64,000 nt of DNA from Candidatus Fimenecus sp. (lineage in GTDB: Bacteria > Bacillota > Clostridia > Oscillospirales > Acutalibacteraceae), in NCBI GenBank assembly GCA_051881455.1, contig JBJEPX010000004.1:6591-70590 (forward strand), written 5' to 3'. Every line of letters begins with the position of its first letter. Position 1 is the first letter of the stretch. The translations under genes and the position numbers were made by a program. The notes beneath the pieces are model-generated. The model ran no database searches. It was given only the letters and a program-made list of their open reading frames with translations, and was not told where the DNA came from. This document shows positions 24,654-44,124 of the stretch, piece after piece.

Positions 24654-26236
24654 TTTTTCAGTCCTTTATAAAAATAAACATTGTCCGTATCGCCGCAGAA
24701 ATAAACTCCGCTTGTATTTTTTGCAACTGCAAAAACTGTGTTTTCGCAAAACAGCGGGAGTATTACGCCGTTCTTCAAAAGGAAGCTTTGGCAATACGAT
24801 AATTTCTCACCGCTTGGAGATATTTTGAGTTCGTTGAATATTCGGGTGTATTCCTCAGATTCATACCTGAAAGCATTTCCGCTTTCCGCAAACAGAGAAA
24901 GGAAATCCACCGCATTATCCGAATCCACGGTAACGGGATAAACTGCCGTGTCGTATTCGCCTGATTTTATGAGTTTGACAAAATCCTCATTGCTAACTGC
25001 CTTAACCGCGCCGTTTAATTCAACGCCGATGTTTTTCTGCCAACAGCTGACAACAGCCTTTGCCGTAGCCTCATATTTTTCTGTGCAAAGCACCTCAACA
25101 GTAAGATTTTCGACGCCCAATTCCTTATAAGCCTCAATCATATTTTTTTGCGCCTCTTCAGCATTAAAGGCTATGCCCTCGACCGCTGTATCATTGCCAA
25201 CAGGCTTGTAATAAGGGGGTACCACCGTTCTAAGCGGGGTTTTTGTTACCGCTGAAAGTTCAACAGCGGAAATAAGGCCCGTTCTTAAAGATACATTTTG
25301 CATTACAGAGTCCGACATATTGAATATAAGGGAGCAGGCAATATTTTGCATTTCCGTTTTCTGTGTGCCGCGCCCAAGTTCTTTTAACGCACTTTCCGAG
25401 GAGAAAAATCCAATATCGTATGTCCCCTTATCAACCTTTTTGGCAATATCCGTTTCGTTGCTGTTAAGATAAATGGAAACCGAAGCGGGAAGTGCGGAAA
25501 AATCTCCGCTGTACTCAGTATTTTTCGCAATGCTTACCGATTTCCCATCATTTACCGAGGAAAGATAAAATGCTCCGTTGCTCACGGTATATTCCGCCGC
25601 CAGACCGTATCTTCCCGCGGTGAGTTCAAAGAATTCTTTATCGCAGGGGTATGAAACGGGCTGAGTAAGAGCATAAAGGAAATCTGCCGATGGGCGTTCC
25701 AAAGTAATTTTCAAGGTCAAGTCATCAATTACGCGCACGCCGAGATTTTCTTCTCCCGTTTCTCCGTTGTGAACGGCCTGTGCATTTTTAATAACGCTTA
25801 AAAGCTCATAATCGGGAGAGGCCGTTTCAGGAAGAACCCCACGGGTTATGCCGAAAGCAAAATCCTCGGCTGTTATTCTGCCGTCAAGACTTGCGCCCTT
25901 TTCTTCAATATATTTTTTTGCCTTATTTGAAATGCAATATTTAAGGTTATCTTTTATAGTAAATGTATACGAAAGTCCGTCAGCCGACACCGAATAATCA
26001 CTCACGGCACATTTAACCGCCTCGCCGTTTTCAGAGAGCTTAAACAAACCGTCAAAAATATTCACGGCTACCATTTTTTCGCTCTGTGTTTTCGCTATCT
26101 GTGGGTCAAAATGAACAGGTAACTCATTAACGGCACAAGCAAAAGCCTTGTTTGTACCGTCGTCTTTTGAACAAGCGGAAAAACAGGTTAAAACAAGTAT
26201 TAAAGCAACGGCAAAAGCCGTAATTTTCTTTATCAT
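24650..26236 (-). CDS. Family-5 (OppA/DppA-like) ABC substrate-binding lipoprotein, orphan
   Basis: Signal peptide with lipobox LTCFSAC|S. The start is set at MIKKITAF (ATG 26236). Overall size and pattern match an SBP_bac_5 protein. No permease or ATPase gene lies nearby. Confidence 0.75.
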   Translation of the reverse strand: MIKKITAFAVALILVLTCFSACSKDDGTNKAFACAVNELPVHFDPQIAKTQSEKMVAVNIFDGLFKLSENGEAVKCAVSDYSVSADGLSYTFTIKDNLKYCISNKAKKYIEEKGASLDGRITAEDFAFGITRGVLPETASPDYELLSVIKNAQAVHNGETGEENLGVRVIDDLTLKITLERPSADFLYALTQPVSYPCDKEFFELTAGRYGLAAEYTVSNGAFYLSSVNDGKSVSIAKNTEYSGDFSALPASVSIYLNSNETDIAKKVDKGTYDIGFFSSESALKELGRGTQKTEMQNIACSLIFNMSDSVMQNVSLRTGLISAVELSAVTKTPLRTVVPPYYKPVGNDTAVEGIAFNAEEAQKNMIEAYKELGVENLTVEVLCTEKYEATAKAVVSCWQKNIGVELNGAVKAVSNEDFVKLIKSGEYDTAVYPVTVDSDNAVDFLSLFAESGNAFRYESEEYTRIFNELKISPSGEKLSYCQSFLLKNGVILPLFCENTVFAVAKNTSGVYFCGDTDNVYFYKGLKK

Positions 26237-40085: not shown

Positions 40086-40805
40086 ATGAACATTCACATT
40101 CTGGAAAACGCAGAGCAGATTGCGGCGGCAGTGGGCGGTATGATTATTGACGCTGTAAACAGAAAGCCTGATATTACGCTGGGCTTTGCAACGGGCGCTT
40201 CTCCCGTTCCCACCTATAACTATTTAAGAAAAGCATATGACGAAGGTAAGGTGAGTTTTAAAAACATAACAACCTTTAACCTTGACGAATACTGCGATTT
40301 GCCTAAATCCGACAAAAACAGTTATTACAGCTTTATGCACGAAAATCTTTTCAACCATATTGATGTAAACGAGGACAATGTTAATTTCTTAAACGGCAAC
40401 GCAAGTGACGCAGAGGCGGAATGTGAGCGTTATGACAACCTCATAAACGAAAAAAGAATTGATATTCAGCTTTTAGGCGTTGGAAGAAACGGTCACATAG
40501 GCTTTAACGAGCCTGCGAACAAATTTACAAAGGGCTCCTTTAAGGTTCGTCTTACCCAAAGCACAATTGACGCCAACTCAATCTATTTTGACGAAAACCC
40601 CATGCCTCACTATGCACTGACAATGGGCACTGTTTCAATTATGAAATCAAGGCAGATAATAATGATTGCAACAGGCAAATCAAAGCAGGACGCCATTTAC
40701 GGTATGGTACACGGCGATATTACCCCCGCCTGCCCTGCGTCGGTTTTACAGCTTCACCCCGATGTACATATTTTCCTTGATAAGGAAGCGGCGGAAAGAC
40801 TGTAA
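40086..40805 (+). CDS. nagB: Glucosamine-6-phosphate deaminase
   Basis: LGFATGASP, FNLDEY, LLGVGRNGHIGFNEP. Confidence 0.9.
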   Translation: MNIHILENAEQIAAAVGGMIIDAVNRKPDITLGFATGASPVPTYNYLRKAYDEGKVSFKNITTFNLDEYCDLPKSDKNSYYSFMHENLFNHIDVNEDNVNFLNGNASDAEAECERYDNLINEKRIDIQLLGVGRNGHIGFNEPANKFTKGSFKVRLTQSTIDANSIYFDENPMPHYALTMGTVSIMKSRQIIMIATGKSKQDAIYGMVHGDITPACPASVLQLHPDVHIFLDKEAAERL

Positions 40806-40812
40806 ATTATAA

Positions 40813-40839
40813 GACCGAACAGCGGAAAACTGCTCGGTC
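40813..40839 (+). repeat. Direct repeat DR1: hairpin GACCGAaCAG-cggaaaa-CTGcTCGGTC with no T-run
   Basis: 26 of 28 aligned positions are identical to 41155-41182. Confidence 0.8.
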
Positions 40840-40867
40840 TTGACAAAATCAAATAATATGTTACAAT
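40840..40867 (+). promoter_or_regulatory. Near-consensus extended -10 promoter (left arm of the cassette)
   Basis: TTGACA(40840-45)-16 nt-TGtTACAAT(40859-67). Confidence 0.6.
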
Positions 40868-40874
40868 ATAAGTG

Positions 40875-40958
40875 AAATAAGGCGGACCGATAGACGGTTA
40901 GCCTGAAAGTTTTAAGTAATAACCGCTAACTTTTCCAGGGTTGGGCGGTTATTTTTTT
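40875..40958 (+). ncRNA. Candidate ~85-nt small RNA (antisense partner of the small ORF mRNA)
   Basis: It lies downstream of the promoter above and has no SD or ORF. It ends at the stem 40919-40930/40940-40952 (12 bp, one bulge) plus T7 (40952-40958). The 5' end is inferred from the promoter only. Confidence 0.4.
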
Positions 40959-41020
40959 ATGCTTAATATGTAACCTGTGGCTACAACGAGAATAATCACA
41001 ACGAATGTCAAATATTCCAT
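40949..41020 (-). CDS. 23-aa hydrophobic peptide MEYLTFVVIILVVATGYILSIKK (type I toxin-like)
   Basis: SD AAGGGGG (41035-41029), an 8-nt spacer, ATG 41020 and TAA 40951-40949. The peptide has a single TM-like core with a C-terminal KK. It has its own promoter, and its stop codon lies inside the convergent terminator. Confidence 0.45.
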   Translation of the reverse strand: MEYLTFVVIILVVATGYILSIKK

Positions 41021-41113
41021 CAGCATCACCCCCTTATATCAAGAGGGCAAATGCCCTCTGATAAATCAAAGGGCTAACCGCCTACCGTTTAGGCTCACCT
41101 TATTCCGATGGAT

Positions 41114-41142
41114 ATTCTAACATAATATGACATATTTTGCAA
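41114..41142 (-). promoter_or_regulatory. Near-consensus extended -10 promoter (right arm of the cassette)
   Basis: TTGCAA(41142-37)-17 nt-TAGAAT(41119-14), preceded by TGt (41122-20). Confidence 0.6.
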
Positions 41143-41154
41143 GCCATAATGAAC

Positions 41155-41189
41155 GACCGAACAGCGGAAATACTGTTCGGTCGTTTTTT
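41155..41189 (+). terminator. Direct repeat DR2: a perfect terminator hairpin plus T-run
   Basis: GACCGAACAG-cggaaata-CTGTTCGGTC followed by GTTTTTT. It overlaps the stop of the minus-strand GH38 gene. Confidence 0.7.
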
Positions 41190-44124
41190 ATGCTTCTATT
41201 CCTATTGTGATAATTTCAAATGGCTTATACTCCACCGTATCGGTTTCGCCGATTACATCTTCAAGCATATTGAGGATTTTCACTTTTCCGCCAAGCTTTA
41301 TTGCGCCTCTTTTGCCGTTTTGTTCGGACAGGCGAATTACAATCATCTTGCCGTTTTCGCTCATCTTCATCGCCTGCATATAAAGCTCGCCGAAGGAGTT
41401 TTCGCAGGTTAAATCCGCCTTGCCGAGGGGAAGATTATATTCATATGCGATATTGTTTATTTCCGCTTTCACAAAATCGTCGCCGTGGGGATAAATCATA
41501 TAAGAAAACTCGTGATGTCCCAAATCGCTTGTGACATCGGGGCGTATTGTTGCTCTTAAAAGGCTCAGGCTCATTGAGTTTTCCAAAAGCCCTACTCCGT
41601 ATTTGGAATCGTTGATTAAAGCCACGCCGCCGTCCGTTTCCGCCATATCAACCCACTTATGATGGCAAACCTCAAAGCGCGCCTGCTGCCACGAGGTGTT
41701 TCGGTGAGTATCGCGCTCAATATAGCCCGCGCTTGTATCGCAAACCGCCTTGCGGGTGAGCACATTACAGTCAAACTGTGCCTTTGCAAGAACATGCTTT
41801 TCGTTCCAGTCAACAACATTTTCAACCTCGATGCCTCTTGACTGACGGAAAACGCGGATAATACGCTTCCAAGTGCTTTTTTCAGTACCCAAAACCACCT
41901 CAAAGGACGCAACCTCTGAATTTTTCTCAACGGTTTTGAGGGGAGAGATTATTTTCGCCTCAACCTCTCTGTCCTTATAATTGGGGAGAATATCCCACGC
42001 ATCGTAAACGCCGGGATTGTCCTTATAAAGTTTAAGCTTGTTAAACTCCCCGCCTACCCATTCACGGTCAAGCTCACGGTCATAAAGGCTTTCAATACTG
42101 CCGTCGTAGTTAAATTTTATCTTATAAAAAGGAGTTGTAACAGTATCGGCAATCTCGCACCACTCGCCCGCAAAGGTGCGCCACGGAATTTCACCGCTTG
42201 AAAGAGGCGGCAGATTGGGAATCACCCAATTACCTTGCTTGCCGTAACGAATGCTTTTGCCGTTTTCGTCCTCAATAAAGGTGAGGTGCTTACGGGTGAA
42301 ATTAAGTGAATTAAAATATTTTTCGCCCGTTCCTATAATCTTATCAAGTCTGCGGTCAATATCCTCATAATCAGCCATGGCGTCACGGTAAACGGGAGTA
42401 ATATGACTGCCCGGCAAAATATCGTGGAACTGATTTACGAGAAGCTTTTTGTAGCACTCGCGAAGCTCCTCATAAGGGTACTTCGCGCCCTTCAAATGGC
42501 GGAGGGTTGACACCATTTCCGCCTCACGGAGTTTAAATTCAAGCTGACGGTTATACCTTTTCATTTTGGATTTTGTGGTAAATGTGCCGCGGTGCATTTC
42601 AAGATACAGCTCGCCGTCCCACTTTGCAAGATTTTTATTGTCTTTAAGATTTTTCTTTAAAAATTCGGAGCCGCCCATATGCTCGGTTTTGGGCATTATG
42701 GAAAGCTTATTAAAGCGTTTCATAACCTCCAGCATTTCCTCGGTACAGCCGCTTCCGCCGTCGCCGTAGCCGAACATGGACATAGTCTGTCCACCTGTGT
42801 TTTTATCCTGATAAGCCTCCCAGTTTTCCTGAATCTGGCTGGGCATATTCCATGTGATAAAGTGCGTAGGCGGTACGCAGGCATAAACCTCGCTTCCGTC
42901 AATACCTTTCCAGATAAAGTTATTGTGGGGGAAACGGTTTGTATCGTTCCAGGTGGACATTTTGTTTGAAACGAAATAATCCACGCCGCTTTTTTTGAGA
43001 ATCTGCGGCAAAATCCAACTGTTTCCGAAAACATCGGGAAGCCAGCAGTTATCAACGGTTTTGCCGAATTTCTCGCGGAAATAATGCTGACCGTACATAC
43101 ACTGGCGGATAAGACTTTCCGCTGAGGGTATATTGCAGTCCGGCTCAACATACATAGCGCCCACAGGCTCAAACTGTCCCTTTGCAATTTTCTCTTTAAG
43201 CTCCTTAAATACATCGGGATAGTATTTTTCAAGCAATTCATATGTAAATGCCTGAGTGTGTGTATATTTGAATTCAGGATAGCGGTCCATTAAGCGGAGC
43301 TGAATAAGAATTGTACGCAGATTTTTCTGAACGGAATGAATTCTTCGCCAATAATACGCAATATCAAGGTGGGAATGAGCGATAAGCGCAACATCGCCGC
43401 TGCCCTTGTAATCATCATTTGCGTAAATAACATCGTCAATATACTTTTTAGCCGCCGCAACATCTTCGTTTTTAATATCATCAAAATCAATGAGATTGAG
43501 AGCGTTGTTAAGCTCGCGATTTAAAAACGCGCGGTAATCCTCATTGAATAAATCGCTTTTTGCAATGTCCAAAAGCAGTTCAATATCATATACCAAATCA
43601 AGCACGGTATGATTGATTACGGAAAGATACGCGCCTTCAAAAATCTGACGGCAGCCGCGAACGGAAAGGGATTCAGGGTTGCGCTCATCGTCAGGTTTGG
43701 AACGGTTATAGCCCTCCATTTCAAAATGGAGCACAGTTTCATCGCCGATATAGGGAGTGAGCAGAATTCTGTCACGGTTGGGGTCAACTCCGCCCACATA
43801 TTTGCCGTTTACCTTAACAATAATTTCAGCGGCTGTTTTAAGCGAAAACCAAAGTTCTTTGTTTCTGAGCTTTTCGGGAATAATCACATCAGCCTCGAAA
43901 AACGCCGTTCCGTCGGGAGTAAAGTACATATCGCCTTTTTTTAGAGGACGCCACCCCTCGGGGTAGTATTCATACTCCATTTCGGCAACCTGACGGGCAT
44001 CACGCACCTTGATGTTCTCTATCTCGAATTTTTCACTGTATATGTATCTTTTAAGCCAGCCGAAGCGCAAATCCGTCCATTCCTCAGGGCGCATACTTCT
44101 TCTTACTACCTTTATATGTGCCAT
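41188..44124 (-). CDS. GH38 alpha-mannosidase (cytoplasmic), second copy
   Basis: IAHSHLDIAYYW, VNQFHDILPGSH, 978 aa, no signal peptide. Confidence 0.9.
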   Translation of the reverse strand: MAHIKVVRRSMRPEEWTDLRFGWLKRYIYSEKFEIENIKVRDARQVAEMEYEYYPEGWRPLKKGDMYFTPDGTAFFEADVIIPEKLRNKELWFSLKTAAEIIVKVNGKYVGGVDPNRDRILLTPYIGDETVLHFEMEGYNRSKPDDERNPESLSVRGCRQIFEGAYLSVINHTVLDLVYDIELLLDIAKSDLFNEDYRAFLNRELNNALNLIDFDDIKNEDVAAAKKYIDDVIYANDDYKGSGDVALIAHSHLDIAYYWRRIHSVQKNLRTILIQLRLMDRYPEFKYTHTQAFTYELLEKYYPDVFKELKEKIAKGQFEPVGAMYVEPDCNIPSAESLIRQCMYGQHYFREKFGKTVDNCWLPDVFGNSWILPQILKKSGVDYFVSNKMSTWNDTNRFPHNNFIWKGIDGSEVYACVPPTHFITWNMPSQIQENWEAYQDKNTGGQTMSMFGYGDGGSGCTEEMLEVMKRFNKLSIMPKTEHMGGSEFLKKNLKDNKNLAKWDGELYLEMHRGTFTTKSKMKRYNRQLEFKLREAEMVSTLRHLKGAKYPYEELRECYKKLLVNQFHDILPGSHITPVYRDAMADYEDIDRRLDKIIGTGEKYFNSLNFTRKHLTFIEDENGKSIRYGKQGNWVIPNLPPLSSGEIPWRTFAGEWCEIADTVTTPFYKIKFNYDGSIESLYDRELDREWVGGEFNKLKLYKDNPGVYDAWDILPNYKDREVEAKIISPLKTVEKNSEVASFEVVLGTEKSTWKRIIRVFRQSRGIEVENVVDWNEKHVLAKAQFDCNVLTRKAVCDTSAGYIERDTHRNTSWQQARFEVCHHKWVDMAETDGGVALINDSKYGVGLLENSMSLSLLRATIRPDVTSDLGHHEFSYMIYPHGDDFVKAEINNIAYEYNLPLGKADLTCENSFGELYMQAMKMSENGKMIVIRLSEQNGKRGAIKLGGKVKILNMLEDVIGETDTVEYKPFEIITIGIEA

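Follow-up and report, generated by a model that had tools for sequence, protein, structure and literature searches.

A 64,000-nucleotide stretch of Candidatus Fimenecus sp. (Acutalibacteraceae; contig JBJEPX010000004.1, positions 6,591 to 70,590; hereafter the window) raises the question of how one transcription terminator hairpin came to be present twice in the spacer between two genes, and what the DNA between the two copies encodes. The spacer (40806-41187) separates the convergent genes nagB (40086-40805, plus strand) and a GH38 alpha-mannosidase gene (41188-44124, minus strand). It contains the left hairpin copy, direct repeat 1 (DR1, 40813-40839), the right copy, direct repeat 2 (DR2, 41155-41182), and between them 315 bp (40840-41154) whose two arms resemble each other in inverted orientation. 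Our answer, to which we assign a probability of about 0.7, is that a type I toxin-antitoxin-like cassette was inserted into the terminator shared by nagB and the GH38 gene, with duplication of the whole hairpin. The cassette is best described as belonging to a new family of type I toxin-antitoxin-like cassettes in which the promoter/leader arms mirror each other. The material compared consisted of the 64-kb window and 8-kb loci around matches, which are designated here by L-numbers.

DR1 reads GACCGAACAGCGGAAA-ACTGCTCGGTC and DR2 reads GACCGAACAGCGGAAATACTGTTCGGTC. Their alignment contains 26 identities over 28 positions and one gap, the same count as in the initial annotation of this locus, which had been made from the sequence without database searches. 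The 16-mer common to both copies occurs only twice in the 64-kb window. DR2 forms a perfect 10-bp stem (14 bp including flanks), followed by T6 at 41184-41189, and was called by a terminator scan; together with this original T-run (41155-41189) it abuts the GH38 stop codon at 41188-41190. DR1 carries a single A.C mismatch, has lost the T-run, and directly adjoins TTGACA at 40840, the -35 box of the left promoter of the cassette. The initial annotation had likewise assigned the perfect stem and T-run to DR2 only and had placed DR1 against the -35 box. An origin of the hairpin as a REP-like repeat was rejected: the motif is found nowhere else in the window, and 13-nt partial matches at 25262 and 26424 are chance occurrences in unrelated sequence. 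Neither blastn nor a covariance model of the small RNA (sRNA) described below detected a second copy of the cassette in the 64-kb window. We also observed an exact 12-nt repeat, TTTTTTATGCTT, after both the sRNA terminator (40953-40964) and DR2 (41184-41195), which may have arisen by chance, as a T-run followed by ATGCTT, or may be left over from the joining event.

The origin of the duplicated hairpin is illuminated by relatives that carry the same gene pair and a single hairpin. At L087 and L088, whose NagB is 83% identical to that of the window, the sequence runs from nagB-TAA through TTAAACATAAAAATTAT, GACCGAGTAGCAAAAACTACTCGGTC and TTTTTTTAT straight into the end of a 978-aa GH38 gene, that is, through 17 nt, one hairpin, GACCGAGTAG..CTACTCGGTC, T7 and the GH38 stop. 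The window corresponds to this empty site plus the 315 bp at 40840-41154, which are missing from L087/L088 in the alignment, and a second hairpin copy; the ~342 extra bases of the filled sites consist of one additional hairpin and the 315-bp cassette. The left flank of the empty site aligns with the left flank of DR1, best in L028, where the A-run is retained, and its right flank, T-run and GH38 end align with the right flank of DR2. The same hairpin lies 3' of nagB in L091/L092 (79% identity) and also, its loop enlarged, in L090 (84%), indicating that it is the ancestral bidirectional nagB/GH38 terminator. Both direct repeats are present at filled sites of separate assemblies (L001, L009, L010, L028 and L054). 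The initial annotation had placed the cassette between the stem and the U-tract of the nagB terminator, with the hairpin duplicated, and had suggested looking for an empty site in relatives; L087 and L088 bear out this placement. On these alignments, parsimony favours insertion in the clade of the window. The event would have taken place at the stem/U-tract boundary of the bidirectional terminator, with the 27-bp stem-loop being duplicated to give DR1 and DR2.

The spacer has been rearranged in other ways as well. L002-L008, with NagB 88-89% identical, keep the synteny and have the hairpin once, together with a different insert of ~1.9 kb; because of this insert (a 105-aa gene and 1.4 kb with neither open reading frames (ORFs) nor an Rfam match) they were rejected as clean empty sites. 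In L002:5760-7120, and also in L003-L008, ~1.4 kb free of called genes stands between nagB and the hairpin, followed by the 105-aa ORF, which is predicted to be membrane-anchored. L086 was uninformative since its synteny differs. At the junction, the GH38 gene ends with ..IEA* in the window (41188-41200), ..IETR* at L087:4264-4285 and ..IPVL* at L002:7663-7680. These differences among the filled, empty and alternative states indicate that rearrangement of the spacer extends into the coding end. Identical-protein look-ups found no record of the exact GH38 protein and found the exact NagB only on a 4-kb contig that ends inside the cassette, and a scan of JGI metagenomes with a pattern for the GH38 end gave 0 matches.

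We considered whether DR1 and DR2 could have arisen by some route other than insertion, either as the remnant of a tandem array (hairpin-cassette-hairpin-cassette) that lost a cassette or by local duplication. Such arrays exist at L074 and L073, where each cassette has its own left hairpin, and hairpins do travel with cassettes, as exemplified by CACCCTTTCGGGTGC at many loci and by the hairpin of L050. However, the nagB hairpin is native in cassette-free relatives of three clades, the flanks of which match the left side of DR1 and the right side of DR2 including the T-run and the GH38 end, and the ancestral T-run follows DR2 with no remnant of TTGACA. We regard this origin as very improbable.

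The initial annotation had suggested a miniature mobile or recombination-generated element, and extra copies are indeed found. We searched GTDB species genomes with a degenerate pattern composed of the -10 box and the leader, which matches both arms in the window and has a chance expectation below 1. The search returned 75 stretches at many different sites, and several metagenome-assembled genomes (MAGs) have more than one copy. All 75 lie in MAGs assigned to Acutalibacteraceae, Ruminococcaceae, Oscillospiraceae or 'Clostridia' that were obtained from the guts of animals and humans. A common architecture is seen in 43 non-redundant complete cassettes. Across the locus, L028, also from Ca. Fimenecus sp., and the window share 92-94% identity. 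In another Fimenecus species (L050), a cassette 86.6% identical to that of the window lies at an unrelated locus and has no right-hand repeat; its left hairpin is DR1-like with compensatory changes. The cassette is thus neither single-copy nor fixed at one site in all relatives. The same pattern matched one IMG/VR contig. In this 68.6-kb predicted viral contig (IMGVR_UViG_3300045988_136367), L089:2980-3290 is a complete cassette with a left hairpin, an sRNA and a 23-aa ORF, MEQYYPVILFLVIATGYIISIKK. It is possible that phages serve as a vector for cassette spread.

The resemblance of the two arms extends well beyond their promoters. Alignment of 40840-40903 with the reverse complement of 41072-41142 gave 51 matches in 73 columns, a 70% identity that agrees with the earlier estimate by eye, and a score of 25.5 compared with -4.3 ± 3.6 for shuffled sequences (z ~8). 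The likeness is not confined to the promoter hexamers: AATAAGG and CGGTTAGCC are included in it. Except for the hairpin of the sRNA terminator, no palindrome is seen in the central ~168 bp (score -7 versus -3.9 ± 4.2 for shuffles), so that the former description of the insert as an imperfect palindrome of ~315 bp holds for the arms and not for the centre. Judged from this alignment, the arms are two diverged inverted copies of one module comprising a promoter and ~35 nt of 5' leader.

The left arm would direct the rightward synthesis of an sRNA of ~85 nt. Its promoter (40840-40867, plus strand), TTGACA, a 16-nt spacer and TGtTACAAT, agrees with the sigma-70 consensus at 11 of 12 positions, has an extended -10 element, and is kept in every family member listed. 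The predicted antisense sRNA (40874-40958, plus strand) starts with GAAAUAAGG and is composed of a stem-loop at the 5' end (40881-40903) and a long terminator hairpin with U7 after it (40918-40958), which overlaps the last codons of the ORF on the other strand. RNAalifold recovered the 5' stem-loop and the terminator across the family with a few compensatory pairs, the only clear one being inside the sRNA stem-loop; the promoter is conserved too. A covariance model built from 53 sRNAs scored the window sRNA at 90.4 bits (E = 4e-17), matched the other arm, containing the toxin leader, weakly (22.5 bits), and matched nothing else in the window. We also observed an extra helix formed by the segment after the stem-loop with the terminator loop, for which cognate and non-cognate pairing energies differ at p = 1e-10, a value inflated by sequence relatedness. 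In searches of Rfam 15, no match with E < 0.01 was found in the window region and none at the gathering score over the cassettes of 6 other loci. Weak matches to SdsR/RyeB and ohsC, far below their gathering scores, were rejected as terminator look-alikes. The conserved promoter, the ~85-nt unit and the terminator, all on the strand opposite to the ORF, make a separately transcribed RNA complementary to the toxin mRNA a strong prediction.

The right arm is predicted to start a leftward mRNA encoding a small peptide. On the minus strand, the putative toxin promoter (41114-41142; TTGCAA, a 17-nt spacer and TGtTAGAAT) is followed by the 5' leader GGAAUAAGGUGAGCCUAAACGGUAGGCGGUUAGCC (41072-41106), homologous to the sRNA 5' end, and by a leader segment (41040-41071) that, in the predicted fold, would sequester or release the Shine-Dalgarno sequence; its motifs CCCUUU, AGAGGGC and GCCCUCUU recur across the family. 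The Shine-Dalgarno sequence AAGGGGGUGAU (41025-41035) pairs with GCCCUCUU in the predicted minimum-energy structure and precedes a well-spaced ATG at 41020. The ORF (40949-41020, minus strand) encodes a hydrophobic 23-aa peptide with a KK tail, MEYLTFVVIILVVATGYILSIKK, the predicted toxin of the cassette. Its end, IKK and the stop codon, is the complement of the sRNA terminator U-tract, so that the last three codons and the stop overlap the sRNA. In the family, 28 distinct ORFs are all exactly 23 codons long and share a conserved GGGGGTGATGCT-ATG; of the pairwise differences among these homologues, 36%, 13% and 51% fall at first, second and third codon positions, respectively. On this pattern of substitution, the peptide ORF is a real coding sequence.

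Two further peptide subfamilies, framed by the same arms, consist of 28 aa (M-I/V-TYSELF...ITKKK) and 24 aa (MD..VF..LIFATGYI..KKK). Pfam gave no match for the 23- and 24-aa peptides and matched the 28-aa subfamily to Hol_Tox only at E = 0.15, below the cut-off; NCBIfam returned nothing significant for the peptides, and neither database gave an Fst family match. We take the 28-aa subfamily (M-I/V-TYSELF..KKK) to resemble the N-termini of TxpA and BsrG. Overall, the cassette has the appearance of a 3'-overlapping type I toxin-antitoxin module, in which the peptide would be the toxin.

The duplicated hairpin appears to have acquired a function within this layout. Throughout the family, a GC-rich hairpin is found upstream of the -35 box of the sRNA promoter, its 3' arm ending exactly at the TT of TTGACA. 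By strict criteria, such a stem is present at the -35 offset in 25 of 64 non-redundant promoters and in at most 6 at offsets of 3 nt or more. The hairpins comprise at least six unrelated sequences, for example GCACCC/GGGTGC, GGACTTGG/CCAAGTCC, CCCAACAG/CTGTTGGG and GACCAATCA/TGATTGGTC. Inspection of the hairpin listing revealed that they carry U-rich tracts when read on the opposite strand, and for this reason we interpret them as intrinsic terminators for the toxin strand. This interpretation rests on the listing and on the positional enrichment; an automated count of U-tracts was confounded by secondary hairpins. In the window, DR1 read on the minus strand, GACCGAGCAG-UUUUCCG-CUGUUCGGUC followed by UUAUAAUUU, has a predicted stability of -20 kcal/mol, and the equivalent hairpin of L028 is followed by U7 (an A7 run to the left). 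DR1 is thus the predicted terminator of the toxin mRNA in the window. The central terminator is stronger in the sRNA sense (-17.5 kcal/mol plus U7) than in antisense (-13.0 kcal/mol), and on the mRNA strand a mean of 3.1 of the next 10 bases are T. Since it is weak in antisense, the toxin mRNA is expected to cross the whole sRNA gene and to end at the left hairpin. The predicted full-length transcript would be ~300 nt (40806-41106, minus strand) and would stop at DR1, which would now serve as its terminator, and the sRNA would be fully complementary to its 3' untranslated region (UTR). The extent of this transcript is deduced from the terminators of the family and from the predicted fold.

Since the 3' UTR would be complementary to the sRNA, the homology between the arms implies that the toxin mRNA has a 5' leader complementary to its own 3' UTR. 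The predicted leader:3' UTR duplex averages -43.9 ± 3.1 kcal/mol over the 43 cassettes compared with -15.5 kcal/mol for shuffled leaders. Folding of the 299-nt window mRNA gave -104.5 kcal/mol (z = -7.6); both the minimum-energy and the centroid structure contain the long-range helix, pair GCCCUCUU with the Shine-Dalgarno sequence, and have DR1 as their 3'-terminal hairpin. These models support a hok-like fold-back, raised speculatively in the initial annotation, as a structural possibility. What stands of that proposal is the predicted pairing of leader and 3' UTR, and the left hairpins as candidate terminators of the toxin strand; it departs from hok in that the antisense RNA would mimic the leader here. 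In the mechanism we propose, the sRNA and the leader would compete for the same site in the 3' UTR, and binding of the sRNA could lead to duplex-dependent decay of the mRNA or to translational silencing.

A simpler explanation of the mirrored arms is that they are alike merely because both RNAs use the same strong promoter and a protective 5' stem-loop, acting against a 5' exonuclease or binding a common factor, with neither fold-back nor competition, and the sRNA acting through the 3' overlap in the manner of RatA and SR4. Both leaders fold into a local 5' stem-loop, the sole clear compensatory pair is within the sRNA stem-loop, and cognate leader:3' UTR pairing was not significantly better than non-cognate pairing (p = 0.09). 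However, in all 43 cassettes the homology spans ~35 transcribed nt including the single-stranded 5' end G(A/G)AAUAAGG, the terminator geometry places the complement of the leader in the mRNA 3' UTR, and the long-range helix is favoured when the whole mRNA is folded. We consider this explanation of the arms a credible possibility, though not the one we expect to hold.

The predicted layout resembles several known systems and differs from each of them. Like txpA/RatA, bsrG/SR4, bsrE/SR5 and yonT/SR6 of Bacillus subtilis, the cassette is from a Firmicute, has convergent genes whose complementarity falls at the toxin mRNA's 3' end or 3' UTR, and would encode a small hydrophobic toxin with a Lys-rich C-terminus; binding of SR4 at the 3' end of bsrG mRNA also changes the structure around the Shine-Dalgarno sequence. 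Unlike these systems, the cassette has no Pfam, NCBIfam or Rfam match, encodes a predicted toxin of just 23 aa, has its sRNA gene wholly within the toxin 3' UTR, and uses homologous promoter and 5' leader sequences for both RNAs. The B. subtilis systems sit in prophage regions, whereas the cassettes are dispersed with target duplications. With hok/sok and Helicobacter aapA/IsoA the cassette would share a modelled mRNA in which the 5' leader pairs with the 3' end and the Shine-Dalgarno sequence is sequestered. The hok/sok antisense RNA binds the 5' leader, whereas the cassette sRNA imitates the leader and is complementary to the leader's 3' partner in the predicted fold-back; there is neither a mok-like reading frame nor sequence similarity. 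At the par (Fst) locus of Enterococcus plasmid pAD1, encoding RNA I and RNA II, convergent RNAs meet, as in the cassette, at a central terminator used by both, and 5'-end repeats in the two genes aid the interaction. In par, these are the direct repeats DRa and DRb and the 5' ends of the RNAs are complementary, whereas the cassette has inverted repeats and identical 5' sequence, and its toxin is unrelated to Fst. An sRNA gene embedded in a toxin 3' UTR, with an sRNA 5' end shared with the toxin mRNA, would thus be a new regulatory layout.

We then asked whether duplication of the target is a general feature of the family. For the 43 complete cassettes, 200 nt on the left were compared with 400 nt on the right, and mismatched flanks served as controls (95th percentile, 13 nt). 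Direct repeats above this percentile flank about ten of the 43. The longest, 145 bp (144/145 identical) at L046, covers the 3' end of a polysaccharide deacetylase gene, where the intact gene gains new last codons; an independent empty site could not be derived for it, since deacetylase homologues reach 74% identity at most and have variable C-termini. A 39-bp repeat at L013 covers the 3' end of a rubrerythrin gene, and a repeat of ~50 bp at L077 is a complete terminator with a T-run. Repeats of 23-24 bp (perfect, L037) and of 15 bp (L034 and L084) consist of locus-specific sequence, a 37-bp repeat at L049 lies in a region rich in hairpin repeats and is a doubtful target duplication, and L074 is a tandem array of two cassettes. 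Over the family, the repeat lengths of 15, 23-24, 27/28, 31-50, 37, 39 and 145 bp are not fixed, and not every target is a hairpin, which limits the earlier proposal that the element targets terminator hairpins. At L037, L046 and L077 the cassette's own left hairpin is inside the repeats, which argues that the hairpin travels with the unit. In the right flanks of L013, L015, L017, L018 and L083, cassettes in different MAGs adjoin the 3' end of a rubrerythrin-like gene; this neighbour is either a recurrent target or an old insertion inherited by descent.

Several observations weigh against an insertion of a toxin-antitoxin-like cassette with hairpin duplication. The empty state of L087 could in principle result from a precise deletion between DR1 and DR2 instead of being ancestral. 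An empty site was found for the nagB/GH38 locus alone, flanking repeats are present in only about 10 of the 43 complete cassettes, and the L049 repeat, lying amid other hairpin repeats, may not be a target duplication. The L050 hairpin, although at a different locus, is like DR1, so that either cassettes carry their hairpin along or insertion favours hairpins of a similar kind. In the window, DR1 is followed by a U-tract of only UUAUAAUUU. The lack of a significant advantage of cognate pairing leaves co-evolution of the arms unsupported, and the likeness of the arms could have another cause. Finally, the promoters and terminators are consensus predictions, and we infer the toxicity of the peptide and the ends of the transcripts from sequence.

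The inverted arms and the duplicated target hairpin had led the initial annotation to describe the insert as similar to a miniature inverted-repeat transposable element (MITE) or to an att site. According to the MITE explanation, TTGACAAAAT... and ...ATTTTGCAA are terminal inverted repeats recognized in trans by a transposase, encoded elsewhere in the genome, of an insertion sequence (IS) such as IS1630 of the IS30 family or the IS1634 type, which targets palindromes or makes long variable duplications. A passage of PMC2853133, referring to its reference 83, describes IS1630 as an IS30-type element using inverted repeats of differing lengths as targets and duplicating them. In the window, the arm likeness reaches the very ends of the insert and the duplicated stretch coincides exactly with a terminator palindrome; the family has multiple dispersed copies, and its hairpins end precisely at the -35 box. 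However, the other repeat-flanked copies start 0-33 nt before the left -35 box and end 9-100 nt past the right one, with no inverted repeat at their true ends. At L037, L046, L077 and L013, the sequence enclosed by the repeats continues past the arms and lacks inverted repeats at its termini, whereas in the window the arms reach the insert ends. This variation in insert ends and duplication lengths argues against a transposase that recognizes the arms. In addition, several of the 15-145-bp duplications are non-palindromic, and the arms, conserved well inside the element, are accounted for by promoter, 5' stem-loop and leader function. The initial annotation recorded no transposase or integrase in the 64-kb window, beyond which no search aimed at one was made. 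The cassette thus shares with MITEs and palindrome-targeting IS elements (IS1630; REP-targeting IS) its small size, the absence of a transposase, its multiple copies, inverted arms and a duplicated terminator palindrome, and differs in that the arms are internal functional modules, the ends vary, the duplication length is not fixed and two genes are carried. A true MITE is, in our view, unlikely.

The flanking pattern is closer to what has been reported for restriction-modification complexes under the name 'insertion with long target duplication' (Nobusato et al. 2000; Furuta et al. 2010, PMC2853133); the latter study used a 30-bp cut-off. In both cases an addiction-type module free of mobility genes is flanked by a repeat that is single at the empty site, and the repeats are long, variable and often overlap gene 3' ends. 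Restriction-modification systems are several kb in size, whereas the cassette is ~0.3 kb and consists of RNA and peptide genes. With 27/28 bp, the repeat in the window is just under the 30-bp criterion (PMC2853133); other family members have 31-145 bp, and empty sites were not found for them. If the analogy holds, it would extend insertion with long target duplication from restriction-modification systems to a 0.3-kb RNA-regulated addiction module, and since the insert is so small, the mechanism would be easier to study.

Under the insertion reading, the cassette, which carries no mobility gene within its 315 bp, would spread within and between Oscillospirales genomes, often landing near gene 3' ends or terminators and duplicating 15-145 bp, and we infer that it is inserted by template switching or break repair at terminator hairpins. 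As a tentative extension, doubtful as it stands, the family may represent a class of selfish 0.3-kb mini-elements that move themselves into terminators and gene 3' ends using host functions only, either template switching during replication or break repair at stalled hairpins. In such a scheme, the captured left hairpin would be kept as the toxin terminator and carried along on later hops, which would explain the unrelated hairpins that end at the sRNA -35 box across the family, and the arms would act both as an RNA switch and as homology for toxin swapping (window versus L009/L054).

In the prevailing view, type I systems have a narrow distribution and little mobility, with local duplication as their main mode of spread (PMC5367252). 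A cassette family with no Rfam, Pfam or NCBIfam match that is dispersed over loci and genera of uncultured gut Oscillospirales contrasts with this view. The closest parallel in this respect is found in the ldr/rdl ('LDR') and ibs/sib ('QUAD') loci of Escherichia coli, type I modules that were first noticed as repeats and are amplified in their lineage, sometimes in tandem. These are thought to spread by local duplication, whereas the cassettes provide a filled/empty pair and occupy many loci and genera. The cassettes also split terminators and change the last codons of neighbouring genes, as at the GH38 C-terminus, and can confuse the assembly and annotation of MAGs.

The centre of the cassette appears to have been exchanged between conserved arms. 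At the same site, L009/L010/L054 (NagB 97% identical) have near-identical arms and both direct repeats, and a different centre encoding MDQTVFLLLVLIFATGYIMTVKKK (L009:1000-1640 and L054, reverse strand, compared with window 40904-41071). The tandem cassettes at L074:1600-2900 have identical arms (61-nt right arms) and left hairpins, one of them encoding a 28-aa and the other a 23-aa predicted toxin. From these comparisons, the conserved arms appear to mediate the swap of the central toxin/sRNA module by recombination.

Other copies are disrupted. The toxin-mRNA leader is interrupted by a 271-bp MITE-like element, bounded by 25-nt terminal inverted repeats (GGCAAAGCCGACGGATTCGAACCCG), at L028:2845-3115, L009:1271-1541 and L010:1162-1375 (corresponding to window 41093/41094). 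The element is absent from the window and L054; a copy 69% identical to it is found at L057:7114-7318. By analogy with IS insertions in chromosomal hok loci, this element probably silences the toxin. The ORF is frameshifted in L082 and truncated in L081 and L015. Such copies (L082, L081, L015 and those with the MITE in L028/L009) indicate that the ORF is dispensable, and this, together with the lack of a Pfam or NCBIfam match, would fit an ORF that is no toxin but either specifies a small, harmless membrane peptide under cis-antisense control or is incidental to two non-coding RNAs. We find this improbable: the invariant 23 codons, the strong Shine-Dalgarno sequence and the coding pattern of substitutions speak against it, as do the hydrophobic peptide with its KK tail, the sequestered Shine-Dalgarno sequence and the convergent antisense RNA. 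Multi-copy spread, tandem arrays and insertional inactivation, all seen in this family, are hallmarks of type I toxin loci (hok, ldr, ibs, txpA, bsrG). Comparison of L015:4100-4330 with L083:2100-2560 showed that in L015 the toxin start and promoter are gone and the sRNA is an orphan; L015 looks like an L083-type cassette after a deletion between the 15-nt direct repeats TGAAAAACAGTRACA.

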